Source: a virus. Taken from it: a stretch of 64,000 nucleotides of DNA. Each line of letters begins with the position of its first letter. Positions within the stretch are counted from its first letter, which is position 1. Positions 38,906 through 63,822 of this stretch are shown one piece after another. Below the pieces are notes generated by a model that saw only the letters and a program-made list of their open reading frames with translations, did not search any database and had not been told where the DNA came from. The stretch lies in IMG/VR virus record IMGVR_UViG_3300032288_005424, one strand, 5' to 3'. The translations under genes were made by a program, and so were the position numbers.

Positions 38906-38918
38906 ATAAATAATTCTG

Positions 38919-40076
38919 ATGAAACTTTTTAAATTCACCGAATTCATAAATGAGGGCCAATTCTACCAAGATCAATTGAATCCAATGGTCTGGGACGGAG
39001 AAGAGCTTAACCCGGAGATCAGAACCAAGCTTCTACAGATCGCTCATGACTTCTACGAGGACTTAAAAGTTAGTGCTCCAATTGAGGACATTCAACTTAC
39101 AGGTTCCCTAGCTAACTATAACTGGACCGAGTACTCTGACTTTGACGTACACGTCATCATGGATCTTTCTAAGATAAACGACGACGTTGAACTTGTAAAG
39201 ATAGCAATGGAAGGTTTAAAAACTGTATGGAATCAACGCCATCCTGTAAATATTGGAGGATACGATGTTGAGTTGTACGCTCAGGACATGAATCAATTAC
39301 ACCTGGCATCAGGTCTGTACTCTTTACTAAAGGGCGAATGGCTTAGAAAGCCAGATTACAATCCGCCAAGCGTAGATCCAAAGGACGTTCAGATAAAATC
39401 CGACCACTACATTTATGCTATAAAGCAACTCATGAAAGAGATTCAAGGTGCTGGACCTGAAGAGGCTCGTGATATTATGGAAAGAGCTTCTGTTCTAAAG
39501 AAAAAGATCTCAAGGTCAAGGGACGAGCAGCTCGCTCATAAGGGCGGAGAGTTCTCGGTCGAGAATCTAGTATTTAAAAGATTACGTAATGAAGGTTGGA
39601 TCGGTAAATTGATTGACCTAAAATCTCAAGCATATTCACACATCTATTCAGAACCATCGGATGCAGTTGATTCTAAATTCTCAACTGAATCGGATGTAGT
39701 AGACGAATCTGTTTCTTTCGGTAAGGGTAACACAGTCGTTGTAATGGGTCCCGATGTCGAGGGAGGTCGTAGGCTTTTTGTGTTCTACGTCGATTGGGTC
39801 AGAGAAGTTGAAAGAGCTGGCCGTTGGGTAAACATGGTTGGACTCTCTTCTCCGATGATGATTCGTCAGGAGAACGGAAATCTAATCGCAAAGCCAGTAA
39901 TGTTTAATTCTCAAACTCTACAGAAGTACGCGGGTCTTAGCGATTACCAAGTCGTTCTAAATTCAAAAACGAAAACTCCGTTTTGGTTCGAGACAGTTAA
40001 ATTCTCAAACCATATTCCAATGCTTAGAGCATTAAGAAACCAATTAATGGGAATTCCTGGAGTTAAGATACCTTAA
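38919..40076 (+). CDS. CTS-like N-terminus plus pol-beta-superfamily nucleotidyltransferase-like protein
   Basis: MKLFKFTEFINEG; LTGSLANYNWTEYSDFDVHVIMD fits the minimal NTase motif hG[GS]x(9-13)Dh[DE]h. Confidence 0.45.
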   Translation: MKLFKFTEFINEGQFYQDQLNPMVWDGEELNPEIRTKLLQIAHDFYEDLKVSAPIEDIQLTGSLANYNWTEYSDFDVHVIMDLSKINDDVELVKIAMEGLKTVWNQRHPVNIGGYDVELYAQDMNQLHLASGLYSLLKGEWLRKPDYNPPSVDPKDVQIKSDHYIYAIKQLMKEIQGAGPEEARDIMERASVLKKKISRSRDEQLAHKGGEFSVENLVFKRLRNEGWIGKLIDLKSQAYSHIYSEPSDAVDSKFSTESDVVDESVSFGKGNTVVVMGPDVEGGRRLFVFYVDWVREVERAGRWVNMVGLSSPMMIRQENGNLIAKPVMFNSQTLQKYAGLSDYQVVLNSKTKTPFWFETVKFSNHIPMLRALRNQLMGIPGVKIP

Positions 40077-40589: not shown

Positions 40590-42425
40590 ATGGCATCTAC
40601 TAAAGAAATAGGAAAGAAGTACCAACTGCTTGATGAGATTGAGCACGTTCTTAAAAGACCTGGAATGTACATTGGTTCTACTAAACCTCACACGGCAAAT
40701 GAATGGATTCTCGGAGACGGCCTCTATTCAAAAGAGGAATTGACCTACAATCCAGGATTCTTGAAGCTGTTTGATGAAATCATTTCAAATTCGGTCGACG
40801 AACACAAGAGGGCAGGTAAAATCAATACAATAAAGGTATCTGTGACTGCTGACACAATCACAGTATGGGATAACGGAGGAATTCCAGTCGTTCAACATCC
40901 TCAACATAAAGTTTGGATTCCAGAATTAATTTTCTCTAACTTAAGAGCAGGCTCAAATTTCAACGATGAAGAAGGCAGAACCGTTGCAGGAACTAATGGA
41001 GTTGGAGCTTCATTAGTTAATATTTTCTCAAAGCGTTTCGTGATTGACACGGCTGACGGAAAGAATCGTTTCTTACAGACGTTTACTGATAACATGTCAA
41101 AGAGAACGACTCCAAAAACAAGTCGAACGTCTCAAGGCTTTACCGAAATAACTTACGTTCCGGATCTTTTAAGATTTGAAATGAAGAAGATAGATGACGC
41201 TCATTGCAAGATGATGCGTAAACGTGTAATTGATATTGCTGCCGCGAATCCGGGTCTCAAGCTTGAATTTAACGGCGAGAAATATCGATTCAAAACATTC
41301 AAGGAATACGTTGATCTGTATGTAAACGATTCAATTTGGGAAAGATCAAAGGACTGGGAAATATCCTTTGGGGTTTCAAAGGACGGTTTCCAATCAGTAT
41401 CGTTCGTCAATTCAATCCACACAAAGGATGGCGGAACCCATGAGAACTATATCTTAAATCAGGTAATTGAGTATCTCAGAGCCATGATCAAGAAGAAGCA
41501 CAAGGTCGATGTTAAACCATCAGAAATAAAAAACCATGTATTTCTTTTCATAAACTGCACGGTAATAAATCCGGCATTCTCATCTCAGACCAAAGAAAAG
41601 TTAATCACTGAGCCCAAGGATTTCGGTACGAAACACGACGTGACTGAGAAATTCGCAAAGGCCGTATTTGGGTCAGAGGTAATTCAGTCTTTGCTTGATT
41701 GGATCGAGCAGAAAAAGAATGCAGAAGAGAGAGCAGAACTACGTAAGCTTAATAAATCGTTAGCTAGCACTAAAGTGCTTAAGTTAATTGATGCAAAAGG
41801 TAAGGACCGTAATAAATGCGTGCTTGGAATATTTGAAGGTATGTCAGCTCTTTCAGCCGTACGTAAGTTCAGAGATCCGCAAACTTTCGGAGCCTTTCCT
41901 CTGAAGGGTAAATTCCTGAACGTTAGTGAGATGACAAACTCTGGGGTCATCCAGAATGATGAGGTCGTCCAGCTAATGGCTTCATTAGGAATCAAATTAG
42001 GAGAGGAACCGGGTGATCTGAGATATGGCAAGGTGTATATCTATACTGATGCTGATCCGGACGGAGACTCTATTGCAGGTCTGCTAATTAACTTTTTTAA
42101 CAAGTACTGGCCAGAACTATTCGATCAAGGTCGAGTATTCAAAGTCATGACTCCGTTAGTCGTTGCTAAAAAGGGCAAGGAGGTAAAACCGTTCTACTCA
42201 AACGAAGAGTATTCCGAATGGGAAAAGAAGACTGGCGCAAAGGGTTGGGATGTTGAATACAAGAAAGGTCTTGCTGCATTGGAAGACGTTGAGTACCGAG
42301 ACATTATCCACAGCCCAGTTCTCGTTAAGCTGCAGAACGACAAGAATTTCAAGGACAGCTTGAACGATTGGTTTGGATCAGACTCTGAACCTCGCAAGGA
42401 GAAACTACTTAAACTTTCAATATAA
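40590..42425 (+). CDS. type II DNA topoisomerase large subunit (GyrB/ParE-like ATPase plus Toprim; T4 gp39-type)
   Basis: LEHVLKRPGMYIGS (GyrB N-terminal hallmark), GHKL ATPase motifs, Toprim FEGMSA and YTDADPDGDSIAGL. Confidence 0.85.
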   Translation: MASTKEIGKKYQLLDEIEHVLKRPGMYIGSTKPHTANEWILGDGLYSKEELTYNPGFLKLFDEIISNSVDEHKRAGKINTIKVSVTADTITVWDNGGIPVVQHPQHKVWIPELIFSNLRAGSNFNDEEGRTVAGTNGVGASLVNIFSKRFVIDTADGKNRFLQTFTDNMSKRTTPKTSRTSQGFTEITYVPDLLRFEMKKIDDAHCKMMRKRVIDIAAANPGLKLEFNGEKYRFKTFKEYVDLYVNDSIWERSKDWEISFGVSKDGFQSVSFVNSIHTKDGGTHENYILNQVIEYLRAMIKKKHKVDVKPSEIKNHVFLFINCTVINPAFSSQTKEKLITEPKDFGTKHDVTEKFAKAVFGSEVIQSLLDWIEQKKNAEERAELRKLNKSLASTKVLKLIDAKGKDRNKCVLGIFEGMSALSAVRKFRDPQTFGAFPLKGKFLNVSEMTNSGVIQNDEVVQLMASLGIKLGEEPGDLRYGKVYIYTDADPDGDSIAGLLINFFNKYWPELFDQGRVFKVMTPLVVAKKGKEVKPFYSNEEYSEWEKKTGAKGWDVEYKKGLAALEDVEYRDIIHSPVLVKLQNDKNFKDSLNDWFGSDSEPRKEKLLKLSI

Positions 42426-42508
42426 TGAAACGATTTATAAGATTTATAACAAAAATACAGATGTCAATTGATTGGACTCGCGAACGCTCAACATTTCAAA
42501 AATTCTAA

Positions 42509-42889
42509 ATGACAGATAACAAAACCCTAATTCTTGCAGAGTTTGAGAAACTCAAAGGCCAGTTCGTAATCAATGCGTGTTGGGATATCGAAAGACTGAT
42601 TGCGGTCGGCGAAGATGAGATGGATTACTATTGGATAACTTACAACGGCCGTAAACTTAAGTGGAATACTTGCGTCGGCAGACTCATGCCTCTCAAGGGT
42701 CATTTAAGAGATAAGGATTATGCTGAGCTGATTAGACTAGCTAAGCTAAATCATTACGATCAGGTAACTCTTTGGAGTAACAGCGAGCCAGAGAAATTTC
42801 AAGCGGCTCGTGAAGAACATGTCAAAGAGCTTTTGACTCTACCGGAAGATCATCGATTTTTAACACCAGTCTGTTTAGACCTAAATTAG
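42509..42889 (+). CDS. hypothetical protein between the topoisomerase subunit genes
   Basis: 126-aa ORF. Confidence 0.45.
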   Translation: MTDNKTLILAEFEKLKGQFVINACWDIERLIAVGEDEMDYYWITYNGRKLKWNTCVGRLMPLKGHLRDKDYAELIRLAKLNHYDQVTLWSNSEPEKFQAAREEHVKELLTLPEDHRFLTPVCLDLN

Positions 42890-42903
42890 TATATTAATAA
42901 CCC

Positions 42904-44265
42904 ATGATTCAATTAAAGAATAAAACTGTAACAGAATATCTTGATCAGGATTACGCGATGTACGGTATGTACACGCTTGAGAACAGGGCGATTCCATCAG
43001 TCATTGACGGATTCAAACCAACTCAACGCAAGATCATCTTCATTGCTGATAAAGTTTGGCGTTCAGGTAATGAGAAGCCTTTAAAGATATTTCAATTAGG
43101 CGGTAAGATCGCATCTGATGCACACTATCATCACGGTGATGGTTCACTAAATGGTGCAATCATTGGTATGGCTCAATCATTCAAGAACTCATTACCGTTA
43201 CTTGACGAGATTGGCCAATTCGGTTCGTTACGATCTCCTGAGGCAGGCGCTGCTCGTTACATCTCAACCAAGCTCACTGGTAATTTCAGACTCTTATACA
43301 AAGACTTTGAACTATTGGAGAATCAGGTAGAAGAAGGTAATGTGATTGAGCCTAAGTTCTTTTTACCTATCATCCCAACCGTTTTGTTGAATGGTAGTTC
43401 AGGAATTGCTGTGGGATTCGCTACTAATATTTTAAACCGAAATCCTCTTGACCTTGTTGATTCTTGCCTAAGGGTGCTAGATGGAAAGAAGGTCGGTAAG
43501 CTTTTACCTTGGTGGAAGGAATACTCAGGCCCAGTCGAGAATGTTACGGGAACCAACCAGTACATAATGCGCGGAGTCTATGAGATTCAGAATACGACAA
43601 CGGTTAATATCACTGAGCTTCCGCCATCAATGACATTTCAAAAGTACGAGACTCATCTTAACTCCTTACAAGACAGAGGTATCATTTACTCGTATGAGGA
43701 TAACTCAACTGATGGAATCAATTACACCATTAAATTCGCAAGAGCAACTTTAGCTGACTTAATCGCAAAGGGCAAACTGGATCAGACTCTAAAGATGGTT
43801 GAGACTGAGACTGAGAACTTGACATGTTTGAATGAAAAGGGCAAGCTAATCATATTCGAAGACGTTCCGCAAGTGGTGGAATACTTCGTTAACTTTAGAT
43901 TAGGATTCTATTCAAAACGCAAAGCCTTCTTGATTAAGAAGTACGGCGAAGAATTGGTGTACTTATCAAATAGAGCAAAGTTCGTAAAGTTAATCATTGA
44001 CGGTAAACTAAAGATCAATAACGTTCCTCGCAAAGAAATAGTCCTCTACTTACAGACTGCTGGCTTCGATGAGGTTAATGGATCTTACAATTACTTGCTA
44101 AACATGCCAATTCATTCCTTGACTAAGGAAACTTATGAGCAGCTCTTAAAAGAGGTTGCTGAAAAGAAAGCCGAATTGGCTGAGATCAAAAAGAAAGAGC
44201 CGATTGAAATGTACAAGGAGGATCTTGTTGAGCTGAAGAAAAACCTTAAAGCGACACTAAAGTAG
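42904..44265 (+). CDS. type II DNA topoisomerase DNA-cleavage subunit (GyrA N-terminal-like; T4 gp52-type)
   Basis: AMYGMYTLENRAIPSVIDGFKPTQRKIIF matches the GyrA N-terminus; active-site Tyr in GAARYISTKL; TATATT box at 42890-42895. Confidence 0.8.
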   Translation: MIQLKNKTVTEYLDQDYAMYGMYTLENRAIPSVIDGFKPTQRKIIFIADKVWRSGNEKPLKIFQLGGKIASDAHYHHGDGSLNGAIIGMAQSFKNSLPLLDEIGQFGSLRSPEAGAARYISTKLTGNFRLLYKDFELLENQVEEGNVIEPKFFLPIIPTVLLNGSSGIAVGFATNILNRNPLDLVDSCLRVLDGKKVGKLLPWWKEYSGPVENVTGTNQYIMRGVYEIQNTTTVNITELPPSMTFQKYETHLNSLQDRGIIYSYEDNSTDGINYTIKFARATLADLIAKGKLDQTLKMVETETENLTCLNEKGKLIIFEDVPQVVEYFVNFRLGFYSKRKAFLIKKYGEELVYLSNRAKFVKLIIDGKLKINNVPRKEIVLYLQTAGFDEVNGSYNYLLNMPIHSLTKETYEQLLKEVAEKKAELAEIKKKEPIEMYKEDLVELKKNLKATLK

Positions 44266-44295: not shown

Positions 44296-44673
44296 ATGAC
44301 ACTATTTAAAGAAACTGCCAGTAAAATATTAGGCATGAACGGAAGAATGATCTCTGGATCAAAGAGCGGATATTGCAATAAGTATCCAAAAAACATTGCA
44401 GTATTTAATGCAAACGTATGTACCAAGAAAGAAGGAAAGATCTGGTACGGTGATATTGACGTGACATTAAGTCGCGAAGGACTATCTGAACTATCGAGAT
44501 CATTGGAGACTGACGTTTACGTTCTTTTTGAAATGGATGCTAGATTCGAGAACGAAGCCTCTCCTAAATTAGAAAATGCACTAGTCGTATTTAGCCAAGA
44601 CGGCTCATGTAAAGTAGGCGAACGTTACAAAGGCTACCTAGACTCCGAAAGTTTAACCAATAAAAATCGTTAA
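44296..44673 (+). CDS. hypothetical protein
   Basis: 125-aa ORF. Confidence 0.45.
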   Translation: MTLFKETASKILGMNGRMISGSKSGYCNKYPKNIAVFNANVCTKKEGKIWYGDIDVTLSREGLSELSRSLETDVYVLFEMDARFENEASPKLENALVVFSQDGSCKVGERYKGYLDSESLTNKNR

Positions 44674-44676
44674 TCT

Positions 44677-45228
44677 ATGATTAAATCATTCACTCAATTT
44701 ATCGCAGGTCTTTTTGAAAAGAAGGGCGATTCCCATTCCTATGGCTGTGCCATGGTGTATTTCGATTTTCCACAAATGCAAGAATTCCATGCTGAAATAG
44801 AGCCGGAAGACGTTTATACCGAAGATGGTGATCGATCTTTTGGATTAGAGGACGAACCTCATACCACTCTGCTCTACGGTCTTCACTCAAACGAGATTGA
44901 TGATGATACTGTAATCGACATTTGTAAGTCTAGACAAATAGGCCCACTAATGTTAGTTAATGCTTCTCTATTTGAAAATGAGAATTACGATGTACTGAAG
45001 TTCGATGTTCAGAACTCTACTCTATACGATATTAATGCCAAGCTTAGCGAATTACCTCACACAACTAATTTTCCAGACTATCATCCACACGCGACGATCG
45101 GTTACTTAAAACCCGGAATGGGCAAGAAATACGTTGAGAAATTCAAGAACAAAACGTATGAGGTGAATCCAAACAAGATAGTTTACTCAAAACCAGATGG
45201 TGATCGTATAGAAGAATCATGGAACTAA
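44677..45228 (+). CDS. CTS-like N-terminus plus 2H phosphoesterase (LigT / Acb1-like)
   Basis: MIKSFTQFIAGL; two H-x-[TS]-x motifs (HTTLLYGL and HATIGYL) diagnostic of the 2H phosphoesterase superfamily. Confidence 0.55.
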   Translation: MIKSFTQFIAGLFEKKGDSHSYGCAMVYFDFPQMQEFHAEIEPEDVYTEDGDRSFGLEDEPHTTLLYGLHSNEIDDDTVIDICKSRQIGPLMLVNASLFENENYDVLKFDVQNSTLYDINAKLSELPHTTNFPDYHPHATIGYLKPGMGKKYVEKFKNKTYEVNPNKIVYSKPDGDRIEESWN

Positions 45229-45683
45229 TTAGCACCTACATTTGTAAGAAAGGAGATATTGGAGTTCACGATAACATGTTCGGCGGAACAATCCTTTCAA
45301 TAATAGACGATGCCTCAGCCAGTTATGCATCTCAGACCTGCGATACGCAGAGAGTCGTGACCTTGAAAATAGATGAGCTCATCTTTGAAAAACCAGTAAA
45401 GGTCGGTAATATTCTGAAAGTTTACGGCGAAGTTAAGGAATTTGGAACAACATCAGTTACTCTCTACATTGAGGTTCGTAAGCACAATGTTTACACAGGC
45501 CTTCAGACAGTAGTCACTCACACGAATATCAAGTTCGTAAGAATCGACGATGAAGGTACTCCGCTTGCGATTAGCGAAAGAGTCAAGGAGAGATACGCTG
45601 AGCGTATGAAGGAATACGGCAGAGCACTGCTCACGCCAGAGGAAATGATTACAAAGAAAACAAATTCCAAAAAGCAACAATGA
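45219..45683 (+). CDS. hotdog-fold acyl-CoA thioesterase
   Basis: VHDNMFGGTILSIIDDASA resembles the thioesterase HGG...D active-site region. Confidence 0.6.
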   Translation: MELISTYICKKGDIGVHDNMFGGTILSIIDDASASYASQTCDTQRVVTLKIDELIFEKPVKVGNILKVYGEVKEFGTTSVTLYIEVRKHNVYTGLQTVVTHTNIKFVRIDDEGTPLAISERVKERYAERMKEYGRALLTPEEMITKKTNSKKQQ

Positions 45684-46633
45684 ACTATAAAATTTTCTCA
45701 ATCGACGGCTCTAAACTAGCCAAAGACATCGCGATCCAATTGGACGCTGACGATTACGATCAAATCTTAGGCAAATTCAAGGTGGACACCTTTTCGGACG
45801 GAGAGATTAGCCCACAATTCATGGAATCAGTTAGGGACAAGAAAGTTTTCTTGGTCTCAAGCACAACAACTCCTGAAAAAATGCTGACCCTATTGCTCTC
45901 GATTGATGCTGCAAAAAGAGCTTCCGCTTCTGAAGTGATTGTTGTATTGCCGTATTTCGGTTATTCAAGACAGGATCGTAAGGAAGGCATGCGTGGAGCG
46001 ATCGGTGCAAAGTTAATGGCAGATCTTTTACAAACGGCTGGTGCAAGCAGAATCATTTCAATAGATCTACATGCTGAACAGATTCAAGGATTCTTTGATA
46101 TTCCGGTGAACATGATCCCAGGTCATGTAGCATTCGCTCCATTCATTAGGACTCTAACCTCTGCTGAATATTGTATTTGTTCGCCAGATGCAGGTGGAGT
46201 AAAAAGAGCAAGCCGCTTTTATCAAAAATTTCTGTATAAATTTCCGGACACTCACTTTGCAATGTTGTCAAAGTTGAGAGACAAGCCCAATTCAATTGAG
46301 AGAATGGATCTAATTGGAGACGTCAAGGATCGTCACGTGATCTTAGTCGATGATATGATAGACACCGGCGGAACTCTAGTAAATGCTGCTAGACTCCTAA
46401 AGGAGGGCGGCGCAAAGAAGGTAACCGCTGTAATCTCACACGGTGTGTTGTCGGGCCTAGGCCATGAAAGAATTGCTGGATCTACCGATCTTGACAAGTT
46501 GATCATTACCGATTCTATTGAGCAAATCAATAACCCCAAGATCCAGGTGGTAAGCTGTGCTCCAGCGATCGCTGCCGCAATCGAAGCAATCGTTAATTCA
46601 ATATCAATGGACAATCACTTAGAAAAAATATAA
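45680..46633 (+). CDS. prs: ribose-phosphate pyrophosphokinase (PRPP synthetase)
   Basis: FSDGEISPQF, VVLPYFGYSRQDRK, DLHAEQIQGFFDIPV, VDDMIDTGGTL; all canonical Prs motifs. Confidence 0.85.
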   Translation: MNYKIFSIDGSKLAKDIAIQLDADDYDQILGKFKVDTFSDGEISPQFMESVRDKKVFLVSSTTTPEKMLTLLLSIDAAKRASASEVIVVLPYFGYSRQDRKEGMRGAIGAKLMADLLQTAGASRIISIDLHAEQIQGFFDIPVNMIPGHVAFAPFIRTLTSAEYCICSPDAGGVKRASRFYQKFLYKFPDTHFAMLSKLRDKPNSIERMDLIGDVKDRHVILVDDMIDTGGTLVNAARLLKEGGAKKVTAVISHGVLSGLGHERIAGSTDLDKLIITDSIEQINNPKIQVVSCAPAIAAAIEAIVNSISMDNHLEKI

Positions 46634-46814: not shown

Positions 46815-47564
46815 TTAAAACGTCATCTTTAAAATTAATGAAGCGGTTTCCTGAGAAGGACTAACCGCTTTATTTATGTAGTAAGGATAGCCTTGATAAC
46901 TGTAAATGTAGAGAACTCCAACTTCGTAACCCCTTTTGATTTTATAGGTTAAAGTATTCGTACTTCGCATGTTCAAGTTACTTGAGTAATCAACGTTACG
47001 ATCGCTAAAAACCGCAGGTTGATAAAGAGTGGTTGACGACAGTTTAAACAGGCCCGACTCGTATTCTAACTTAAATCTAGTGGAGAGTCTAATCGTGAAG
47101 TTATTCTTTGTCTGATCAATGCTTGACCAATAGTATTCAGGTAAAATGATTTCAGAAATGGATATGTCCCAGCCACCTCCTTCTAAAATATCATGAGCTG
47201 CTCCAAGGCCTAATGAACCTCTGAGCTTAATATTTCGCATGTACGATTTCTCGTCCTCAGTGAATGCGAGTATTTTCCAGGCTCCAAACTTACGAGCGAC
47301 ATTGCCTGTAAGATAAAGTTCATTCTCGTACAGATTCATCTTGGTCTGACCGTACGGTGACTGCTCGCTCCAACGGTATGTTGGAGTCAGGGCCCAAGTA
47401 AATTTACCAGTGTCCTTTTTGATATCAGCCTTGACCGTAACTCCGATTGAACTAAAATTTCCCCTGGAACCGTCGGCTCCAAGGGAAATTGATTTAGAGA
47501 TCGGTTGAGCGTTGCTAATACTAGTGGCCAATATAGCCAATGTAAAAAATAGTAATCCTTTCAT
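46815..47564 (-). CDS. outer-membrane beta-barrel-like protein
   Basis: Signal peptide MKGLLFFTLAILATSISNAQ; alternating amphipathic strands; C-terminal ...LKMTF with terminal Phe. Confidence 0.45.
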   Translation of the reverse strand: MKGLLFFTLAILATSISNAQPISKSISLGADGSRGNFSSIGVTVKADIKKDTGKFTWALTPTYRWSEQSPYGQTKMNLYENELYLTGNVARKFGAWKILAFTEDEKSYMRNIKLRGSLGLGAAHDILEGGGWDISISEIILPEYYWSSIDQTKNNFTIRLSTRFKLEYESGLFKLSSTTLYQPAVFSDRNVDYSSNLNMRSTNTLTYKIKRGYEVGVLYIYSYQGYPYYINKAVSPSQETASLILKMTF

Positions 47565-49197: not shown

Positions 49198-49368
49198 ATG
49201 AAAAATCTATTTTTCGCGATCGCAATGATCTTCGCTGTAGCTTTGACAAGCTGTCAAAATACTGCAACTGAGGCAACATCAACTTGCCAAGACACTACCT
49301 GCGTTGACTCTACTGCAACCGCAGTTGACACGACAAGTGTTAAAGTTGATAGCGTAAACACTAAGTAA
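49198..49368 (+). CDS. small lipoprotein
   Basis: Lipobox LTSC (MKNLFFAIAMIFAVALTSCQN); TATAAT box at 49156-49161. Confidence 0.4.
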   Translation: MKNLFFAIAMIFAVALTSCQNTATEATSTCQDTTCVDSTATAVDTTSVKVDSVNTK

Positions 49369-49394
49369 TCAATTACATATTTTTACGATCTTTT

Positions 49395-49430
49395 CTGCCC
49401 GAGCCTAGGTTCGGGCAGCTTTGTTTTGGA
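49395..49430 (+). terminator. terminator
   Basis: CTGCCCGAgcctaggtTCGGGCAG plus T-rich tail. Confidence 0.55.
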
Positions 49431-49454
49431 TAAATAATAAGAAAGTCGTAAAAA

Positions 49455-51380
49455 ATGAAACAAATCCAAGCTTTATTTCTTGGGGTGTGTCTCTTTCTAA
49501 TAGGAGGCATTTCCAATCAGGTTGCTGCACAAACTTGCCCAGTTGCACCAACCTCAGCAACACCTTACGTCCTGATCGATTCGTCGTACCAGGTAGGAAC
49601 GGTCGCTTCGGGCAAAACCTATGCTAGCTTCTGCTACGCCAATCCAACTTCCACAAAAATTACAGGTCTTCAGTTTAGAGTATGGTATGATAAGACTGCA
49701 TTTGCCGGCGCAAATCCAGTTGTCACCTCAGCCAATACCAGCTGGTCGCAAAGCCTGAATTACGTGGTTAATGCAACTGAAGGTAATATCACAATTACCA
49801 TCGCGTACACAGGTTCTAGTTCAACATTCACCATTCCAGACGGAAGACAATTTACTGTTGAATTTACTCACTCAACTAACTTCCAGACGTACACTTCAAT
49901 TTCAAATCTCGCAATCACTGGAACTACAACCTTTCCAACAAGTTCTGCGAACATTAACGGTTTAGATGACACTTTGGCTCTTTATAGTTATGGTGGAGTC
50001 ATGAAGAACGTTAAGCTTAATTTTCATGGTGAATTCACAAACGTGACTGGTTCTCCAGCAAAGAATCTAACTTTGGCTTTAGAGAAAAAACCTAAGACTG
50101 GTTCTACTTGGACTCAGGTTGCCTCTTACACAACTAACACTCTAGGAAAATTCTCGTTCTCAGAAGATGTTGATACCACTTACTATGATGCACGCATTTA
50201 TGTTAAAGGGGATACTCTTGGTGTGGGTAACATCGTCTCAACTGCGGACGCTCAAAAAATCAATGACTGGATCCTAGGACTAGCTACTCCTACCGGTTTT
50301 GATTACTACACTGGAGACGTTAACGGATCAAACGGAATTACTATCGCTGACGTTTATGGCGCATTCGGAAGAATTGCTGGGCGTTTCAGTGCATGGCCTA
50401 ATTCAGTAATGGACATTCTATTCTTCTCTGCATCAGAATACGCAACGATTAACGGATCATCGACTAACTATCGCTCAACAATTCCAGGTACAACTAATCT
50501 GTACTACACAATTAGCGGAGGAGTTGTAGATTCAGTTAAATTCTATGTTGCTTCTCCTGGTGATGCTAACGGTACAGGTTACAACATGGCACGTTTGACC
50601 CCAATTCCAATCATTAATCCAGCAAATGCTAATAAATACATAATTGATGAAACTGTTGAATACGATAATTTGAATTTATCAGTAATGGAAGTCAATGTTC
50701 CTAAATTATCAGTAGAAGAAGGTAACCTAGTTAATATTCCAGTAAAGGTTTTGACTAACGGTTCAGATCGAGTAGGAGCTCTTCAATTGGCTCTAATGTA
50801 CGATCAAGCCCTATTGGAGTTTAGAGGAATTAACGGAACTGAGAAATCTCAAAAGTGGATGGCCTTCGTTAATCCATCAAACGGTGTAGTTGAATGGGGA
50901 GGATTTGATCCAACTGGCAAAGATAACTTAATGAACAGCGGCGAAGAAGTAGTTACTATTCAATTCGCAGCGCTTAAGCCTCAAGACGAATGGGGTAAAA
51001 GCCCTCTGTATACTACTCGTAAATTCGCAGGAGACGCTTCAGCTAGAGATATGGTAATCACTCCAACCAACGGAATGGTCTCAGTTTTGAGAGTCATGGG
51101 CGGAGGATTTAACATCGGCGATGAAGATTTTGAAATTTATCCTAATCCAACACAGGGAGAAATTCAGGTAGTTTTCAGCGTTAAAGAAGATACTAAAGCC
51201 ACAGTATCAGTTTATACTCTAGACGGTAAAAATGTAATAGAGATAATCAACGAACAAGTGCCCGAAGGAAAATATCGGTACTCAGCAGATCTGGGATTTT
51301 TAACACCTGGAACTTACACAGCAATTTTACAAACAGCTAGTGATAATCGAATCACTGCAAAAAGAATAATCAAAAACTAA
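49455..51380 (+). CDS. secreted protein with a type IX secretion system C-terminal sorting domain
   Basis: Signal peptide MKQIQALFLGVCLFLIGGISNQVAAQ; C-terminal ~80 aa (IYPNPTQGEIQVVF...VYTLDGKNV...GKYRYSADLGFLTPGTYTAILQT...KRIIKN) fits the T9SS CTD (TIGR04183-like); dockerin-like GDVNGSNGITIADV. Confidence 0.6.
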   Translation: MKQIQALFLGVCLFLIGGISNQVAAQTCPVAPTSATPYVLIDSSYQVGTVASGKTYASFCYANPTSTKITGLQFRVWYDKTAFAGANPVVTSANTSWSQSLNYVVNATEGNITITIAYTGSSSTFTIPDGRQFTVEFTHSTNFQTYTSISNLAITGTTTFPTSSANINGLDDTLALYSYGGVMKNVKLNFHGEFTNVTGSPAKNLTLALEKKPKTGSTWTQVASYTTNTLGKFSFSEDVDTTYYDARIYVKGDTLGVGNIVSTADAQKINDWILGLATPTGFDYYTGDVNGSNGITIADVYGAFGRIAGRFSAWPNSVMDILFFSASEYATINGSSTNYRSTIPGTTNLYYTISGGVVDSVKFYVASPGDANGTGYNMARLTPIPIINPANANKYIIDETVEYDNLNLSVMEVNVPKLSVEEGNLVNIPVKVLTNGSDRVGALQLALMYDQALLEFRGINGTEKSQKWMAFVNPSNGVVEWGGFDPTGKDNLMNSGEEVVTIQFAALKPQDEWGKSPLYTTRKFAGDASARDMVITPTNGMVSVLRVMGGGFNIGDEDFEIYPNPTQGEIQVVFSVKEDTKATVSVYTLDGKNVIEIINEQVPEGKYRYSADLGFLTPGTYTAILQTASDNRITAKRIIKN

Positions 51381-51397
51381 AAAAAACGGAAATCTGT

Positions 51398-51736
51398 ATG
51401 TCAGACGAACAAAACGTAGAGACCAATGACGGAACTTGGTCAGGATTAAAGAAAACAATAATTGGCGTTGCAACTACGGCAATTATGGCAGGTGGAACTT
51501 ACTTCACAACCACTCTATTCGGAGGCCACGATAAGGAAGAAACTAAAACTGAGCAAGCTGCACCAGCTGCTGCGCCGGTTATCAATCTAAACGTTGATAA
51601 TTCTTCTAAGAACGTTGCAAACGGTGGAGGAACAACCACCGTGATCAAAGAAAAAACAATCGTTGAAAAACCAGCGGCCGCTAAAGAAGAAAAGAAAGTG
51701 GAAAAGAAGAGCGAAACTGAGGATTCACCTTGGTAA
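51398..51736 (+). CDS. small membrane protein
   Basis: One TM helix (IIGVATTAIMAGGTYFTTTLFGG). Confidence 0.4.
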   Translation: MSDEQNVETNDGTWSGLKKTIIGVATTAIMAGGTYFTTTLFGGHDKEETKTEQAAPAAAPVINLNVDNSSKNVANGGGTTTVIKEKTIVEKPAAAKEEKKVEKKSETEDSPW

Positions 51737-51886
51737 TATGAAATACGTTCTTTTGACGCTTGGCATCGAGGCTGTCCTGTTTTTGACATGGGTTTTCTTT
51801 GAAGCTAAAAGACAAATAAAGGAAGAAGAGTCTGGGCGGTTTTGGCCGCCCGACTTTTTCGACCGTTAAAAAAACAAATCGTAAAA

Positions 51887-52291
51887 ATGAAAAAATGGTT
51901 TTCAGGTAGTAATGAATATGTAAAGGTTGAAGACAAGAACCGATTCTATTATATGCTACAACAAATGCAAGCTAATCGTTGGAGAATTACTGCCATCGTA
52001 TTAGGTTTATTCACATTGATTATTGTTGGCATTAATGCCGGAGTATTCATGGGAGCTACAATCAATGAAGATTGGAAAGAGATGTTGCTAATTCTATTAG
52101 GAGCTTTCGTTGGTAACCTAAATAAAGTGGTTGACTACTGGTTCAACTCTGAAGACAGAGATAAAATGCTGATTCAAAAGGTTGACGAAGAGGATGGTTT
52201 CTCATTATCAAATATTGCAGATCCAAACGCTAACCAAGTAAGTTCTATCAAGGTTGAGTCTGAATTATCGGACGAAGAGCCTCTAGCTTGA
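51887..52291 (+). CDS. membrane protein
   Basis: Start set at MKKWFSG, after the hairpin at 51834-51859; TM RITAIVLGLFTLIIVGINAGVFM. Confidence 0.4.
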   Translation: MKKWFSGSNEYVKVEDKNRFYYMLQQMQANRWRITAIVLGLFTLIIVGINAGVFMGATINEDWKEMLLILLGAFVGNLNKVVDYWFNSEDRDKMLIQKVDEEDGFSLSNIADPNANQVSSIKVESELSDEEPLA

Positions 52292-52344
52292 TTTTTAAAA
52301 AAATAAGGGCGGTCTTTGATCGCCCTTTTTACTATTCACAAATT

Positions 52345-53061
52345 ATGAAAAATATTATATGCTTATTGCTAGGCTTGGCTTTGGCCTTCTCAGCTAAATC
52401 CCAAACGATCGGCAGCATTAAAACCGACAAATACAAGGCAAGTTTTGAAAAAGAAGCCTCGCTTGACTCTATGCCAGAGTACACTGACACTCTTAAAATT
52501 CCAATTCAATTACTAAAGATCGGAATCAATGAAGAGCTTTATGAAATGTATCCGGAATTAAAGGACAAGCGAGTAGGACTTGGCGTTACGAACATTGTGC
52601 TTGAGTATCTTGAAATGACCAACCGTTTTGAATTCACAGAAGACAAAAAGGAAATTAAAGAAAGAATGGTTAATCAATTCAAGGCAAGCGACAAAGGCTT
52701 TACCGAGAATAAAATTGACGGCCGCGGAAAGGTTAAGTTGGCCAAGTACTTTGTCTATATCGAAGTTTACGATTTTTCAGTGTCAGAAGACGAGGTTGTA
52801 AAAGCAAAAGGGCAGGCAAAAGCAACTCAAACGACTAGGCTAGGATTACAGATCAAATTCGTTGATGCTGAATCTGGAGCAATCGTCATGGGTTCTGGAT
52901 TGGGAGAAGCTTCTACTGTCAAGATGTCAACCATATTAGATGACGTTGACGAAATTAAGTTCAACCAGTCGACAATAGGAATTACGACTAAGAAATCTCT
53001 TGAATACGCAACTTATCATGTGGTTCAAAAGCTAATAAAGAAAGGTGTTTTTAAACAATAA
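52345..53061 (+). CDS. CsgG-like lipoprotein (curli secretion-channel family) - tentative
   Basis: Lipoprotein-type signal MKNIICLLLGLALAFSAKSQ; GLGVTNIVLEYLEMTNRFEFTE and LQIKFVDAESGAIVMGSG resemble CsgG core segments (eye alignment only). Confidence 0.35.
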   Translation: MKNIICLLLGLALAFSAKSQTIGSIKTDKYKASFEKEASLDSMPEYTDTLKIPIQLLKIGINEELYEMYPELKDKRVGLGVTNIVLEYLEMTNRFEFTEDKKEIKERMVNQFKASDKGFTENKIDGRGKVKLAKYFVYIEVYDFSVSEDEVVKAKGQAKATQTTRLGLQIKFVDAESGAIVMGSGLGEASTVKMSTILDDVDEIKFNQSTIGITTKKSLEYATYHVVQKLIKKGVFKQ

Positions 53062-54695
53062 TGAAAAGGATACTTGTAACATTAACTGTATTATGCATGG
53101 CTTTGTCAGCAATGGCTCAAAGCTTTACCTACAGCTATGTGAATCCCTGTAATGGAAACATTGAAAAGATAGTGATTCCTTCCGGATCAAATTCGGTTGC
53201 CGTGACTTACTATAATCAAATACGAGTTTTCAGCGAAGCTGATTTCTCAAATGGAACGTTTGACGCATGGGCAAGTTCAGTGTTTAATTCATACAGCCAA
53301 GTTTCTCCATGTGCAGGTATCGGAACAACTACGGTCGTTTCACTGACTCAAAACACAGCAATGACGATGATCTCAATAATGGGATCGTTAACCACAATTA
53401 GCGATGCGTTAGGCAGTGTTAATTCGTTGGGAGGATTAACTGCGTCCGTTACTAGCGGGAGCGGTGGGTCAGATGGATCTAAAGGAAGTAACAACTCTAA
53501 AAAGACTAAATCAAATGACGCAGGTGGACAAGGAACATCGCAATCAACAGGTTCCTCTAATTCTTCCGGTGGAAGTTCTCAATCTACTGGTTCTACTTCG
53601 ACAAGCGGGCAGGGCTCAAGCGGATCAAGTTCAACTACTGGATCAACTGGAAGCTCAACTCAATCTTCTACAGGAACACCACAATCTCAGAGTGGTTCAA
53701 CTCAAGGAGGAAGTTCGTCGTCTCAGCCGACTCTAAGCGGAGGATCGACTAGCGGTTCTAGTTCAAGCGGTTCAAATTCAGGAAGCTCGACTACTGGTTC
53801 CGGATCTTCAAGTTCAACCAGCGGATCGAGCTCAGGAGGATCAACAAATGGCTCAAGCTCAGGATCCTCAAGTTCAACTGACGGATCAACCAGCGGATCG
53901 GGCTCAGGAGGATCAAGCACTGGCTCAGGATCTTCTAGTGGAGGTTCAACTAAAACAGAAGCAGCGGCTGAAGACAAAAAAACCGATGCACTAAGCGGTT
54001 CAAATAATGCAGTTAGATCAACACCCACTAACGGAACTGGAAATTCAAAGAATGGATTAAGGCCGATGGTTGTCGCAGGTAGCGATTTAGCCGGATTTAA
54101 TTTTAAAGACGGGGATGTTGCGTTCGGTGGAAAGATTAACGGCAACTACACGTCAGTTAGATACGATCAACGCCGATCTCATGGATTGTTATTTGACTAC
54201 ACAACCGCGATCAAAGGACCTAACATTACCGGTTTTTACGCATGGATGAAACCGAAAAGAATCACATTACTTTCAAATACATTGACTATCGGATTTGAAG
54301 GCAAGGGCTCAATTTATAATAGCGTTGCATTCGGACAGATGAGAGATATTGGAAAATCTAAAAGACTAAAGCTTGTTTACATGGCATCCGCTTCCGTTGG
54401 CGAAGTGTATGACGAAGCTTTTTTAGGAACCGCTCTAATTGCTGGAGGAATGTACGACTGGAGAGTCAGCAAAAAGCTAGATCTTAAACTTATGGCTCTT
54501 GGAGTTTACGCTCCATACGTGAGCTACTACAACGATATTTTACTACAGTCTCCTTATGTTATTTTGCCAAGCATTGGAACTAATATTAAGGTGACAAAGA
54601 ATTTTAGATTCAACATAAACTGGGGAGGAGCGTGGGCCATAAATCAAAATGTGTTGAACTACACGATAACAATTGGAACAAGACTTGTGCTTTAA
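53061..54695 (+). CDS. secreted protein with a long S/G/T-rich low-complexity linker and a C-terminal beta-rich domain
   Basis: Signal peptide MKRILVTLTVLCMALSAMAQ; ~180 aa of SGS/TGS repeats; C-terminal ~200 aa with alternating hydrophobic strands. Confidence 0.5.
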   Translation: MKRILVTLTVLCMALSAMAQSFTYSYVNPCNGNIEKIVIPSGSNSVAVTYYNQIRVFSEADFSNGTFDAWASSVFNSYSQVSPCAGIGTTTVVSLTQNTAMTMISIMGSLTTISDALGSVNSLGGLTASVTSGSGGSDGSKGSNNSKKTKSNDAGGQGTSQSTGSSNSSGGSSQSTGSTSTSGQGSSGSSSTTGSTGSSTQSSTGTPQSQSGSTQGGSSSSQPTLSGGSTSGSSSSGSNSGSSTTGSGSSSSTSGSSSGGSTNGSSSGSSSSTDGSTSGSGSGGSSTGSGSSSGGSTKTEAAAEDKKTDALSGSNNAVRSTPTNGTGNSKNGLRPMVVAGSDLAGFNFKDGDVAFGGKINGNYTSVRYDQRRSHGLLFDYTTAIKGPNITGFYAWMKPKRITLLSNTLTIGFEGKGSIYNSVAFGQMRDIGKSKRLKLVYMASASVGEVYDEAFLGTALIAGGMYDWRVSKKLDLKLMALGVYAPYVSYYNDILLQSPYVILPSIGTNIKVTKNFRFNINWGGAWAINQNVLNYTITIGTRLVL

Positions 54696-54697
54696 AT

Positions 54698-56998
54698 ATG
54701 AAAAATATTATTCTAATAATACTTGCATTCGCTCTACTATTCCCTAAATTAGCGGAGGCTCAAGCGACCTCAGTTAATTTAGGGACTTCGAGTACCTCAG
54801 CCCTGTCCGCTACTTATAATACTTGGACAAAGGTTGACCCTAATATTACAATAACTGCAAATGGAACCATCTCTGGATTCAGGGTTCAAATTTCGCAAAC
54901 CTATACAAGCGGAGATCAATTACGATCTACTGGGACTCTACCTTCTGGAGTTAGCTCTTCTTTTAATACGACCACCGGTATACTTGCATTTAGCGGAACA
55001 GCATCCGCTTCTGACTGGCAAACGGTATTGAGAGGAGTCGAGTTTAGATCGACCACTACTACGTGCTATGCACTACAGAGGAGAGTAACGTTCGTAGCTG
55101 GAGCAGTTTTCTATAATCCTCTTACTGAACATTTTTATGAATATGTATCTGGCTCAATAACCTTTACAAACTCAGTAACCTCTGCTCAAGCTCGATCTTA
55201 TTTTGGTAGAGCAGGATATTTAGCAACAATGTCATCAGAGGCTGAAAATAATTTTGTTTGGAGACTAATGGCCAGCGATTGCTGGTTCGGTGCATCTGAC
55301 GAAGTTGGCTTGGTAAATTCAGCAAAGGGAACCACTGCATTCGCTAGTCAAGCTGCGGTTGAGGGTAAATGGCACTGGATCTCAGGTCCCGAAAAAGGGA
55401 TCAATTTTTCAAATGGTAATGCAGGAGCTGGCCCAACTACCGTATCTGGACAATACGCTAAATGGGCGCCTGGCGAACCCAACAACTCAGGTGGCGAGCA
55501 TTACGGTCAATTCTATTCAGCCAATCTAGGCCAGTGGAATGACTTACCTAATACGAATCTCGGAGGATACCTTTGCGAGTATGGGGACATGCCCGGAGAT
55601 ATTACGAGCAGCGTTACCATACTGACTAGGGATATTGAAATTAGTAATTCTTCAAGTGGCTATATCACTGGTGGAAACATCAATGTGTGTTCTGGCTCAA
55701 ACAGTACAACTCTAACTCTAACCAATTTAACAGGGTCAGTTGTACGTTGGGAATCTTCGCTTGATAATTTCTTTACGGCTGGAACAACGATTTCAAGTAC
55801 CTCATCGACCTTAACTATTACTAACTTAACTAGGACCACTTACTATAGAGCAATCGTAAATTCAACGAGTCCAGTCTCGTGCACAGGATTAGCGACGTCA
55901 AGCGTATTTCTATCAGTCAAACCGACCAGAGCCGGCACAGTATTCGCTGCGAACAATTCAATATGTTCAGGCGGCCTAGCTGAATTGACCCTGTCCGGAC
56001 AACAGGGTAACGTGAATAAGTGGCAACGTTCGATCAACAACATAAATTGGACGGATATTACAAACACTAGCACGAGCTTGACTGAAACCATTAATACAGC
56101 TGGAACTTATTACTATCGAGTTGAGGTGCAGACTCCAAGCTGCGGAAGTGCAGTATTTTCAGATTCAAAAATAATTACTGTGACTTCTGGAACTCCACCG
56201 ACCGGTGGATCAGTTTCGTCGGCAGTTCATCCAACCTCGACAAACTCAGGAACGTTGACGTTAAGCGGCCATACTGGAACAATTGTTAAATGGCAAAGAT
56301 CAACAAATTCCGGCGTAACATGGACAGACATCGCAAATACTGGAACGACTAACTCATACTCAAATCAGACTGACGGTACCATGTTCAGAGCTCAATTGAC
56401 TAGCGGTACCTGCGGAAACGCATTCTCTTCTGCTGGCACAATCACAGTTGCTCCATTCACTCACTCCGGTTCTGTGTACAACGCTGAGAATACTGGAATT
56501 CAAAACGTCGTTGTCAATCTACTTCATAAATTAAAAACTGATTTAGTTTACAGTGCATTGAGCTCTTCAACCACCGCTGCAAACGGCAGTTACTCGTTCT
56601 CCACATCATTGAGCGTTAACAAATACGATTTCATAATCAGCATTAACTCAGCAGCTGTTGATTCGCCGACGTCGGCTGACGCTGAGTCTTTTAATCAAAA
56701 GGTACTTTACCAATCGTTCGTCTCGAAAGACTATTATCGAATGGACGCTAATTCAAATGGAAAGTTATCAATCACTGATGTATTCTTAGTGTATGCTAAA
56801 AAGAGTGGATTAATTTCCACGTGGCCTTACTCTACCCCAAATTACAGGATATTTACAGCATCGCAATGGTCGGCGATAAACTCAAGCGCGAGTAATTTAG
56901 TTGCAACATATCCTGGGACTCAGGCGCTAACCACACCAACCTTGACTTCCGGTGGAACTACTAATTTCTATATCGTTAAAACCGGCTTAATAAAATAA
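54698..56998 (+). CDS. large secreted protein with a C-type lectin domain and repeated beta-rich (Ig-like) modules
   Basis: Signal peptide MKNIILIILAFALLFPKLAEAQ; WHWISGPEKG...YAKWAPGEPNNSGGEHYGQFYSANLGQWNDLPN...YLCEY matches the CTLD WIGL/EPN/WND motifs. Confidence 0.55.
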   Translation: MKNIILIILAFALLFPKLAEAQATSVNLGTSSTSALSATYNTWTKVDPNITITANGTISGFRVQISQTYTSGDQLRSTGTLPSGVSSSFNTTTGILAFSGTASASDWQTVLRGVEFRSTTTTCYALQRRVTFVAGAVFYNPLTEHFYEYVSGSITFTNSVTSAQARSYFGRAGYLATMSSEAENNFVWRLMASDCWFGASDEVGLVNSAKGTTAFASQAAVEGKWHWISGPEKGINFSNGNAGAGPTTVSGQYAKWAPGEPNNSGGEHYGQFYSANLGQWNDLPNTNLGGYLCEYGDMPGDITSSVTILTRDIEISNSSSGYITGGNINVCSGSNSTTLTLTNLTGSVVRWESSLDNFFTAGTTISSTSSTLTITNLTRTTYYRAIVNSTSPVSCTGLATSSVFLSVKPTRAGTVFAANNSICSGGLAELTLSGQQGNVNKWQRSINNINWTDITNTSTSLTETINTAGTYYYRVEVQTPSCGSAVFSDSKIITVTSGTPPTGGSVSSAVHPTSTNSGTLTLSGHTGTIVKWQRSTNSGVTWTDIANTGTTNSYSNQTDGTMFRAQLTSGTCGNAFSSAGTITVAPFTHSGSVYNAENTGIQNVVVNLLHKLKTDLVYSALSSSTTAANGSYSFSTSLSVNKYDFIISINSAAVDSPTSADAESFNQKVLYQSFVSKDYYRMDANSNGKLSITDVFLVYAKKSGLISTWPYSTPNYRIFTASQWSAINSSASNLVATYPGTQALTTPTLTSGGTTNFYIVKTGLIK

Positions 56999-57010
56999 AA
57001 ACAATAACAC

Positions 57011-57493
57011 ATGAAACAGCTTATTTTCTTTTTAGTTCTCATACTTGGAGTGCAGCTTCAAGCATTCAGTCAAAACTGCGTCAAGGTCGATACAGTCTAC
57101 ACAACCGCTAAGATAAAGGAATTAAAGAATCGCAGGATCACATTCGGGATTCGCCAGATCGCAGAAGAAGAACTTTCCAATAAGTACCAAATCTGCCAGG
57201 AAGGTGAGCCCATAGGGATCGAGGTTGCCTATGTTGGAACTCCAAAAAAGAGCTTCACGTTTGGCGGAGTAGGCGGAGCTGTTCAAACTACTGAGGTTCT
57301 TGTTAAGCTTCACATGGCCGGTCTTGTGTATGACGGTAATGGAGCAGAAGAAACTTCCGCACAAATGATGTTCATTCAATTGAATGACGATCAGATTCCA
57401 TTCGACAAGACGACTCTATCTACTGCTCTAAAGAGAGCGATCGCCGATGCAGTAAAAAAGATGACCACGGTTAAACCAATTGAGGGAAATTGA
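57011..57493 (+). CDS. secreted hypothetical protein
   Basis: Signal peptide MKQLIFFLVLILGVQLQAFSQ. Confidence 0.45.
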   Translation: MKQLIFFLVLILGVQLQAFSQNCVKVDTVYTTAKIKELKNRRITFGIRQIAEEELSNKYQICQEGEPIGIEVAYVGTPKKSFTFGGVGGAVQTTEVLVKLHMAGLVYDGNGAEETSAQMMFIQLNDDQIPFDKTTLSTALKRAIADAVKKMTTVKPIEGN

Positions 57494-59978: not shown

Positions 59979-60063
59979 GGAGAGGTGGCAGAGCGGTTGA
60001 ACGCGGCGGTCTTGAAAACCGTTTTAGGTAACACTAACGGGGGTTCGAATCCCTCCCTCTCCG
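59979..60063 (+). tRNA. tRNA-Ser (anticodon UGA), type II with long variable arm
   Basis: GGAGAGG acceptor, D-arm GCAGAGCGGTTGAACGC, anticodon loop CTTGAAA, long variable arm, T-arm GGGGGTTCGAATCCCTC, 3' CCTCTCC-G. Confidence 0.8.
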
Positions 60064-60079
60064 CAAAATAACAATACGA

Positions 60080-63583: not shown

Positions 63584-63660
63584 TGGTGCGGTAGCTCAGA
63601 TGGTAGAGCACAGGACTGAAAATCCTGGTGTCGGCAGTTCGATCCTGCCCCGCACCACCA
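63584..63660 (+). tRNA. tRNA-Phe (anticodon GAA), CCA encoded
   Basis: GGTGCGG-TA-GCTCAGATGGTAGAGC-ACAGGACTGAAAATCCTG-GTGTC-GGCAGTTCGATCCTGCC-CCGCACC-A-CCA. Confidence 0.85.
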
Positions 63661-63745
63661 AAAAAAGATTATGAAAATGAAACGATTAGTAATGAAACGA
63701 AAACGATAAGGTCCCGATGACTCTCATTGAGCTGCGGGACAATAA

Positions 63746-63822
63746 GACTTCGTAACTCAGTTGGTTAGAGTACCATACTTTTAATATGGGAGTCACAGGT
63801 TCGAGTCCTGTCGGGGTCACCA
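63746..63822 (+). tRNA. tRNA-Lys (anticodon UUU), CCA encoded
   Basis: Acceptor GACTTCG/CGGGGTC (two G-U pairs), D-arm ACTCAGTTGGTTAGAGT, anticodon arm CCATA-CTTTTAA-TATGG, T-arm ACAGGTTCGAGTCCTGT. Confidence 0.7.

Follow-up and report, generated by a model that had tools for sequence, protein, structure and literature searches.

What enzyme is encoded between positions 44,677 and 45,228 of the IMG/VR virus record IMGVR_UViG_3300032288_005424, and does it enter the next host cell together with the phage DNA? The stretch that we analyzed, referred to below as the window, comprises 64,000 nt, and the gene in question, from a jumbo phage, encodes a 183-aa protein of the 2H phosphoesterase superfamily whose first 14 residues resemble the capsid-targeting sequence (CTS) of phage T4. 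The reading that we favor is that the protein is an Acb1-related 2H phosphodiesterase with a T4-type capsid-targeting leader, delivered with the DNA and acting as a cutter of cyclic nucleotide signals. We assign this reading as a whole a probability of roughly 0.4.

The 2H Enzyme and Its Nearest Characterized Relative

The original prediction placed two H-x-T-x motifs about 80 residues apart in this protein and assigned it to the 2H phosphoesterases, and both claims were borne out. HTTLLYGL was found at residues 62–69 (DNA from 44,860) and HATIGYL at residues 138–144 (DNA from 45,088), which gives the H-x-[TS]-x pair of the superfamily as H62-T-T-L and H138-A-T-I, with 76 residues between the two catalytic histidines. 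The predicted structure has a bilobed alpha+beta fold with both motifs facing the central cleft. Based on the motifs, the confident model, and fold searches, we regard a 2H fold with an intact active site as practically certain. A phmmer search of the protein against PDB sequences returned no match. Homologues are abundant, with more than 1,100 detected in metagenomes and 361 loci in IMG/VR.

Searched with a profile of the 2H family, the full set of PDB sequences gave matches to Acb1 chains and nothing else, and these were weak (E 0.08–0.5). We then compared profiles using hhalign, with an alignment of the 2H family (A1), an alignment of the Acb1 family (A2), and an alignment of enterobacterial ThpR (A3, whose query sequence was 100% identical to the annotated thpR) as inputs. 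The 2H family matched the Acb1 family with a probability of 89% (E 2.4e-6) and the ThpR family with a probability of 3% (E 0.015), while the control comparison of Acb1 to ThpR gave 2% (E 0.026). The family is closer to Acb1 than to ThpR by this measure, ThpR being the sole comparator in the test. What is shared with Acb1 is a signature in the C-terminal lobe, D-[FY]-x-D-Y-x-P-H-x-T-[LI]-x-Y, which takes in the position of the base-stacking residue F107 (F132 here; F or Y across the family). In Acb1, the nucleobase-stacking aromatics are Y12, W74, F107, and W147, and adenine is read by E141 (T4 numbering; Hobbs 2022). The invariant F99 of the window protein is a possible equivalent of W74 by spacing alone. 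Residues E179 and W182 at the C-terminus are present in the window clade and not conserved family-wide.

Acb1 (T4 gp57B; PF23474; PDB 7T26/7T27, 9Q2G) and the window protein thus have in common the 2H fold with its HxT/HxT tetrad, the C-terminal-lobe signature, the best profile–profile match of the families tested, and the character of a small (about 150–170 aa), free-standing phage accessory protein. Some orthologues of the window protein even score above the PF23474 threshold (P0072, 31.4 bits). The cGAMP (cyclic GMP–AMP) phosphodiesterase of Penguinpox, also a 2H enzyme (PDB 9BKQ/9CIW), differs in being a eukaryotic virus protein with 12–14% identity, in targeting 2'3'-cGAMP, and in having no leader. 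In T4 itself, acb1 (57B) directly adjoins the internal-protein gene ipI (L001:11592-12411).

A Probable T4-Type Leader

About 20 of the ~107 open reading frames (ORFs) in the window start with M-K-x-[IL]-K-x-F-x-x-[FW]-[ILVM]-x-E, hereafter the tag, of which MKHIKLFEEFVTEKK is a canonical example. With the tags removed, a single paralogous pair remained among 20 tagged proteins, which include a phage lysozyme (31,642–32,466) and a weak nucleotidyltransferase-like protein (38,919–40,076). Within the first ten start positions of ORFs, the strict core of the tag, [FY]xx[FWY][ILVM]xE, occurred 12 times, versus four occurrences in 17,051 internal positions, a 42-fold enrichment at N-termini (p = 2.5e-12).

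The remaining 19 tagged N-termini of the window were used to construct a position-specific scoring matrix (PSSM), on which the leader of the 2H protein, MIKSFTQFIAGLFE, scored 18.0 bits. The maximum among 87 untagged N-termini was 7.7, none of 15,114 internal windows reached 18, and most other tags had lower leave-one-out scores. The resemblance to a capsid-targeting N-terminus, as originally claimed, is therefore not a matter of chance. The leader is also conserved: E14 is invariant in 35 orthologues, down to 52% identity, and codon changes relative to the closest relatives are synonymous only (0 non-synonymous). In the structural model, its predicted local distance difference test (pLDDT) values are below 50, with a short helix at residues 5–12. 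In the T4 CTS, residues 4 and 7 serve targeting and residues 8 and 10 serve processing (PMC9026906), and these four positions coincide with positions of the core, which supports a T4-type signal. The targeting aromatics are matched by F5 and F8 of the 2H protein. As for the processing positions, I9 is present and Gly11 stands in place of the canonical Glu, followed by L12-F13-E14, so cleavage would have to use this second site.

The core of the tag recurs in the head proteins of T4 and of related phages. T4 gp23 contains it once, as F59-G-S-F-L-T-E65, and the terminal E65 is the maturation site of gp23. IPII and IPIII, as encoded in the T4 genome, start with MKTYQEFIAE, and the IPIII CTS scores 15.9 bits on the PSSM of the window tags. 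In related phages, a scaffold-like region of 5–11 repeats with an exact 14-residue period (e.g., YQEYVAE, YSEYLAE, and NLDKNIxYSEYLAE) forms one protein with a gp21-type prohead protease (phmmer 3.6e-9 against T4 gp21), and the core of the scaffold repeat is that of the N-terminal tag and of the T4 CTS. The background expectation for the core is 0.14 per protein, and no other of ~2,500 ORFs had at least three internal hits. Since the leader reproduces the repeat of a scaffold attached to the protease, we infer co-assembly with the prohead core and a cut after Glu14.

The protease and a gp23-type capsid protein were found outside the 64 kb window, on four ~270 kb contigs, on L018, and on LR745206. 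The same four contigs bear 2H genes of the window clade (71% identity), and these genes carry the leader MLKSFSQFVTGLFE. Such contigs were reached by an alignment-based protease search of IMG/VR; a single-sequence search had missed them. The protease of the megaphage LR745206, whose 2H orthologue carries a canonical tag, was located with the L119 protease as the query, as a tblastn search with T4 gp21 (2,574 records) could not settle its presence. In the gp23-like capsid proteins of relatives, [LIV]-[FN]-E is conserved around residue 51–54 (LFE, IFE, INE, LNE), and the LFE that ends the leader of the 2H protein is a tripeptide of this predicted maturation site. Directly after the capsid gene of relatives, inside the head module, lie genes for small Lys-rich tagged proteins that look like internal head proteins. 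In silico support is strong for the tag class as a T4-type head-targeting and processing signal, and we consider this assignment probable.

The tag tracks the genome, not the enzyme, as follows from three observations. Among the neighbors of canonical-tag orthologues 14.5% were tagged, versus about 2% among the neighbors of others (p = 4e-4). Orthologues without a leader exist, namely that of a Maribacter phage and a 168-aa metagenomic form. In another lineage, the 2H orthologue and its neighbors carry a second, unrelated leader, ...[LF][KR]RMQxLAG[IVL]I[TV]E (L050, L072), whose last residues, immediately ahead of the folded domain, are likewise I-x-E (e.g., ...RMQKLAGLIVE). Leaders have been gained, lost, or swapped among orthologues along the genome lineage, and the same enzyme may have been repeatedly re-addressed, being tagged, untagged, or provided with another lineage-specific leader. 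Tagging can be dense: in 24.5 kb of LR745206.1, at least 15 of 39 ORFs begin with MK[HY]LK[KR][FY]NE[SN]. Orthologues vary beyond the leader as well. In P0054, P0072, P0075, P0085, and P0119, a Cys-containing basic module (PCWxGYKQxGTKKKxGKxVPNCVP) directly follows the tag Glu (A1 columns 30–97), with some of the inserted modules adding a CxxC...CxxC zinc-ribbon-like segment, and P0049, P0074, and P0096 are extended at the C-terminus by a domain of about 85 aa. Pfam gave no match to either the insert or this domain.

Tagged genes of the window also tend to share an upstream element. The motif ATAAATAA is present in 24 copies versus 4.7 expected, and it was detected upstream of 12 of the 20 tagged genes versus nine of the 87 untagged genes (p = 7e-6), at a distance of 5–30 nt from most of the tagged ones. 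Seven of its eight bases agree with the T4 late promoter TATAAATA, and copies of it lie densely near the head genes of relatives. The T4 late promoter itself was considered as the element of the window and rejected (one copy versus 2.7 expected).

Proposed Delivery and Competing Explanations

In the mechanism that we propose, the 183-aa precursor would bind the prohead core via a leader that mimics the scaffold repeat. A gp21-type protease would then cut after E14 and leave a 169-aa enzyme in the head, to be ejected with the DNA into the next host cell. There, the HxT/HxT tetrad would perform a metal-independent transesterification of a ribonucleotide phosphodiester, the likeliest targets being cyclic di- or trinucleotide immune signals, which would be destroyed in the manner of Acb1. 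Judging from the sequence, packaging of this particular 2H protein in the virion has slightly better than even odds. Cyclic oligonucleotide immune signals are a tentative choice of substrate, somewhat short of even odds; we rank them above RNA 2',3'-cyclic phosphate ends, with ADP-ribose-derived cyclic phosphates a distant third.

Such a design would resemble that of the T4 internal proteins IPI, IPII, and IPIII, whose CTS is cut by gp21. The likeness extends to a leader of 10–14 residues with aromatics three apart and Ile/Leu-x-Glu, to its presence on unrelated cargo, and to a gp21-type protease and a gp23-type capsid protein in the lineage. The differences are that the cargo here is a 2H enzyme, that ~20 ORFs per 64 kb are tagged versus a handful in T4, that the motif recurs as the repeat in the scaffold domain of the protease fusion, and that in the leader of this gene Gly replaces the canonical Glu and L-F-E follows as a second site. 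The giant phages phiKZ and SPN3US, whose ejection proteins have propeptides that a protease removes, likewise fill the head with many different proteins trimmed by a gp21-like enzyme, and their cleavage motif is S/A/G-x-E. No short universal N-terminal tag was described for them in the literature searched.

A number of observations weigh against the favored reading, and those that concern the enzyme limit its kinship with Acb1. The profile match to Acb1 is confined to 43 columns in the C-terminal lobe. The window protein scored 20.7 bits (E 3.6e-4) against PF23474, for which the gathering score is 27, and among 35 orthologues PF13563 matched all 35 (best 8e-9) and Acb1 matched 33 at E < 0.01 (best 2e-8). 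The N-lobe of Acb1 is not recognizably conserved in the window protein, and no residues of the 2H family clearly correspond to Y12 or to the E141/W147 lid. In predicted viral structure space, the nearest proteins were uncharacterized phage '2'-5' RNA ligase-like' proteins (template modeling score 0.7–0.8), including those of Maribacter phage Colly and Tenacibaculum phage PTm1, and true Acb1 appeared only from rank 23. Full membership in the Acb1 family was rejected because of the tie with PF13563, the lack of clear counterparts to these residues, and the structural rank, and we conclude that the protein belongs to a separate 2H clade that has Acb1 as its nearest characterized relative and lies outside the Acb1 family as now defined. 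The Acb1-like character put forward in the original prediction stands insofar as Acb1 is the closest characterized family by profile–profile comparison; it does not extend to passing the Pfam cutoff or to structural clustering. The structural comparison to Acb1 and LigT proposed alongside it confirmed the 2H fold and does not discriminate between the families. If the enzyme were instead an RNA end-healing 2',3'-cyclic phosphodiesterase, ThpR/LigT- or CPDase-like and directed against host anticodon nucleases or RNA-cleaving toxins, its delivery would be optional. This alternative is unlikely, as the comparison with the ThpR profile was at noise level, PF02834 (LigT_PEase) matched only two of the 35 family members at E < 0.01, and in none of 51 distinct loci did an RNA ligase or polynucleotide kinase lie within three genes of the 2H gene in either direction. 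Moreover, HxT[IL]xY fits Acb1 and not ThpR, in which Arg stands two residues past the second HxT-Leu motif (H125-I-T-L-L-R130), and the window protein differs from ThpR/LigT and archaeal 2'-5' RNA ligases (PF02834, PF13563; PDB 1VGJ, 5LDI) in being phage-borne and having a leader. A salvage enzyme for an ADP-ribose- or NAD (nicotinamide adenine dinucleotide)-derived cyclic phosphate, such as ADP-ribose 1'',2''-cyclic phosphate (Appr>p), would agree with the presence of the plant CPDase that acts on Appr>p among the fold hits (1fsi/1jh6), and with the position of the 2H gene in a co-oriented, overlapping run with thioesterase and phosphoribosyl pyrophosphate (PRPP) synthetase-like genes. The latter gene might encode a synthetase of ADP-ribose pyrophosphate that serves NAD+ reconstitution. 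Such a salvage role is very improbable: the linkage to the PRPP synthetase-like gene is restricted to the closest relatives (L006-L009) and not kept across lineages, a partner from the NAD pathway was not identified in the window, and the LR745206 orthologue (L005:11995-13311, 438 aa) consists of a tag, a 2H domain, and a DEDD/RNase T exonuclease (PF00929, 31.8 bits), a fusion that points to RNA or oligonucleotide substrates.

The remaining counterevidence concerns the leader and its use. The 2H protein misses the strict core, with Gly11 occurring throughout the window clade, and its gene has no perfect ATAAATAA, only a version matching at six of eight positions. Its start codon follows the preceding ORF by 3 nt, and it lies within a topoisomerase II/thioesterase/PRPP synthetase run that resembles replication-phase genes. 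Without the leader, the mature enzyme is acidic (pI, the isoelectric point, 4.7), unlike the T4 internal proteins. T4 Acb1 is made de novo and is active ~15 min into infection, and has no leader; its N-terminus (MMEFKDF...) was suspected of being CTS-like, and this candidate was rejected at −5.1 bits on the PSSM. Pre-loading would thus be a mode of deployment distinct from that of T4. Gly11, the imperfect ATAAATAA, the gene run, and the de novo synthesis of T4 Acb1, together with the evident functionality of the leaderless orthologues, agree with a leader that is a decayed or repurposed relic in this gene, on an enzyme that acts only in the cytoplasm and is expressed with replication genes, as T4 Acb1 is. 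We consider such a relic doubtful in view of the purifying selection on the leader with its invariant E14, the identity of L-F-E to the predicted maturation tripeptide of the capsid protein in relatives, the high PSSM score, and the perfect copy of ATAAATAA that relative L010 keeps at −19. The claim of a CTS tag in the original prediction therefore fared well for the tag class and less well for this gene, given its variant tag, the lack of a canonical late-type promoter motif, and its place in a topoisomerase/nucleotide-metabolism operon. Head cargo amounting to ~20% of the window ORFs would also be unusually much, and in the loci of some relatives the tagged share reaches a third or more. These shares and the A/T-rich codons of the tag would suit a shared N-terminal motif unrelated to the capsid, be it a translation-initiation or mRNA feature, the boundary of a recombination cassette, or a signal for another destination. 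We rate this as improbable because it is the amino acids that are conserved, the aromatic, aliphatic, and Glu positions being fixed, because the scaffold repeats of the protease consist of the identical motif, which also matches the T4 CTS and the gp23 cleavage site, because tagged Lys-rich small proteins lie inside the head module, and because [IV]xE likewise terminates the second, unrelated leader family.

Gene Neighborhood, Host, and Significance

Features of the window and of the protease loci are listed in Table 1. The thioesterase and PRPP synthetase named as neighbors in the original prediction were recovered by Pfam as the adjoining genes. Synteny of topoisomerase II with the 2H gene was observed in L006-L019. 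The 4HBT thioesterase adjoins the 2H gene in five distinct lineages, and a weak functional link between the two is possible. No conserved functional partner was found across the 51 distinct loci; homing endonucleases were the most frequent neighbors, which fits a mobile accessory gene. Scans for sigma-70 promoters and intrinsic terminators around the operon gave results at chance level.

Table 1. Coordinates of the 2H gene, its parts, its neighbors, and related features (window positions unless a locus is given)
Feature	Coordinates	Strand	Remarks
2H phosphoesterase precursor ORF	44677..45228	+	ATG start, 183 aa plus stop
N-terminal leader/tag, residues 1–14 (MIKSFTQFIAGLFE)	44677..44718	+	predicted prohead-protease cleavage after E14
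Short basic disordered linker K15–S21 between leader and fold	44719..44739	+	pLDDT <50 through residue 19
2H phosphoesterase catalytic domain, residues 22–183	44740..45225	+	
First catalytic H-x-T motif, H62-T63-T64	44860..44868	+	H62 and T64 invariant in 35 orthologues
Acb1-like signature F132-P-D-Y-H-P-H-A-T-I-G-Y143	45070..45105	+	aligns with T4 Acb1 F107...Y118
Second catalytic H-x-T motif, H138-A139-T140	45088..45096	+	H138 and T140 invariant in 35 orthologues
T4-type topoisomerase II subunits	40590..44265	+	gp39-like 40590-42425, gp52-like 42904-44265; upstream, same gene run
125-aa ORF	44296..44673	+	stop 3 nt before 2H start; syntenic only in close relatives
4HBT/hotdog thioesterase	45219..45683	+	PF03061 1.7e-13; overlaps 2H stop by 10 nt
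PRPP synthetase-like gene	45680..46633	+	PF13793 1.8e-34, PF14572 1.6e-17; overlaps thioesterase end
Degenerate (6/8) ATAAATAA copy	44660..44667	+	10 nt before 2H start; putative promoter
Nearest perfect ATAAATAA upstream	38906..38913	+	unbroken + gene run to 46814
ATAAATAA sites, examples	4327, 24974, 26014, 29947, 33059, 38906, 61634, 62245	+	
ATAAATAA sites, examples	4308, 9072, 9815, 10590	-	
Tagged N-termini, first part	4302(-), 4353(+), ~9013(-), 9795(-), 10214(-), 10565(-), 24986, 25499, 26044, 28764		
Tagged N-termini, second part	29980, 30185, 31642, 33090, 34857, 38919, 44677, 61662, 62274, 62846		
tRNA-Ser(tga)	59979-60064		
tRNA-Phe(gaa), tRNA-Lys(ttt), tRNA-Met(cat), tRNA-Trp(cca)	63585-63989		end of window
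Protease–scaffold fusion	L018:12744-14555	-	
Protease–scaffold fusion	L119:2435-4468		
Protease–scaffold fusion	L125:4992-7115		LR745206
Protease–scaffold fusion	L140:5181-7019		

A megablast search with the 40–48 kb region yielded no match among deposited phages, indicating that there is no close cultured relative. Many ORFs of the window possess Bacteroidota-style signal peptides or lipoprotein-like N-termini (e.g., MKKLIIAIIAAVSFQVANAQ), located at 46,815–47,564 (−), 49,198–57,493 (+), 2678, 6644 (−), 7382, and 40,095 and including three large ORFs of 544–766 aa. These signal peptides and the relatives in Maribacter and Tenacibaculum phages suggest a Bacteroidota host. The window also contains two GC-rich islands (~10,600–13,600 and ~22,600–24,900) with a guanine–cytosine (GC) content of 0.49–0.535 versus ~0.40 elsewhere, in which only implausible Arg/Pro/Gly-rich ORFs were found. 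The islands had no transfer RNA (tRNA) or Rfam match, and the first (11.2–13.7 kb) had no blastn match in deposited phages.

In the literature searched, neither a packaged Acb1 nor CTS-like tags of huge or Bacteroidota phages had been reported. A 2025 preprint reports an ejectosome protein that inhibits the cyclic oligonucleotide-based antiphage signaling system (CBASS), a precedent for a virion-delivered anti-CBASS function. What we describe is a new variant, in which an Acb1-related 2H protein is joined to a known signal of the T4 CTS type, in a setting without prior description in the literature searched.

Regardless of how the protein is deployed, the analysis marks out an abundant and hitherto unstudied 2H clade (>1,100 metagenomic members). 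If the leader works as proposed, an enzyme of the anti-signaling type would be pre-packaged in the virion, shifting the timing of the contest over nucleotide second messengers. A more general picture, which we hold to be somewhat unlikely at present, is that in T4-related jumbo phages and megaphages (about 120–735 kb) one transferable tag, equal to a single copy of the 14-residue scaffold repeat, loads dozens of unrelated enzymes for co-injection, the Acb1-related 2H phosphodiesterase being among the cargo, and that cyclic oligonucleotide (or other nucleotide) immune signals are destroyed from the onset of infection. If true, the largest known phages would share a general way of loading cargo, namely the principle of the T4 CTS, familiar from a handful of internal proteins. 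As the rule is simple and readable from the sequence (the tag equals the scaffold repeat, which equals the protease site), it would predict the injected proteome of such phages, and it would be usable for the engineering of protein delivery.
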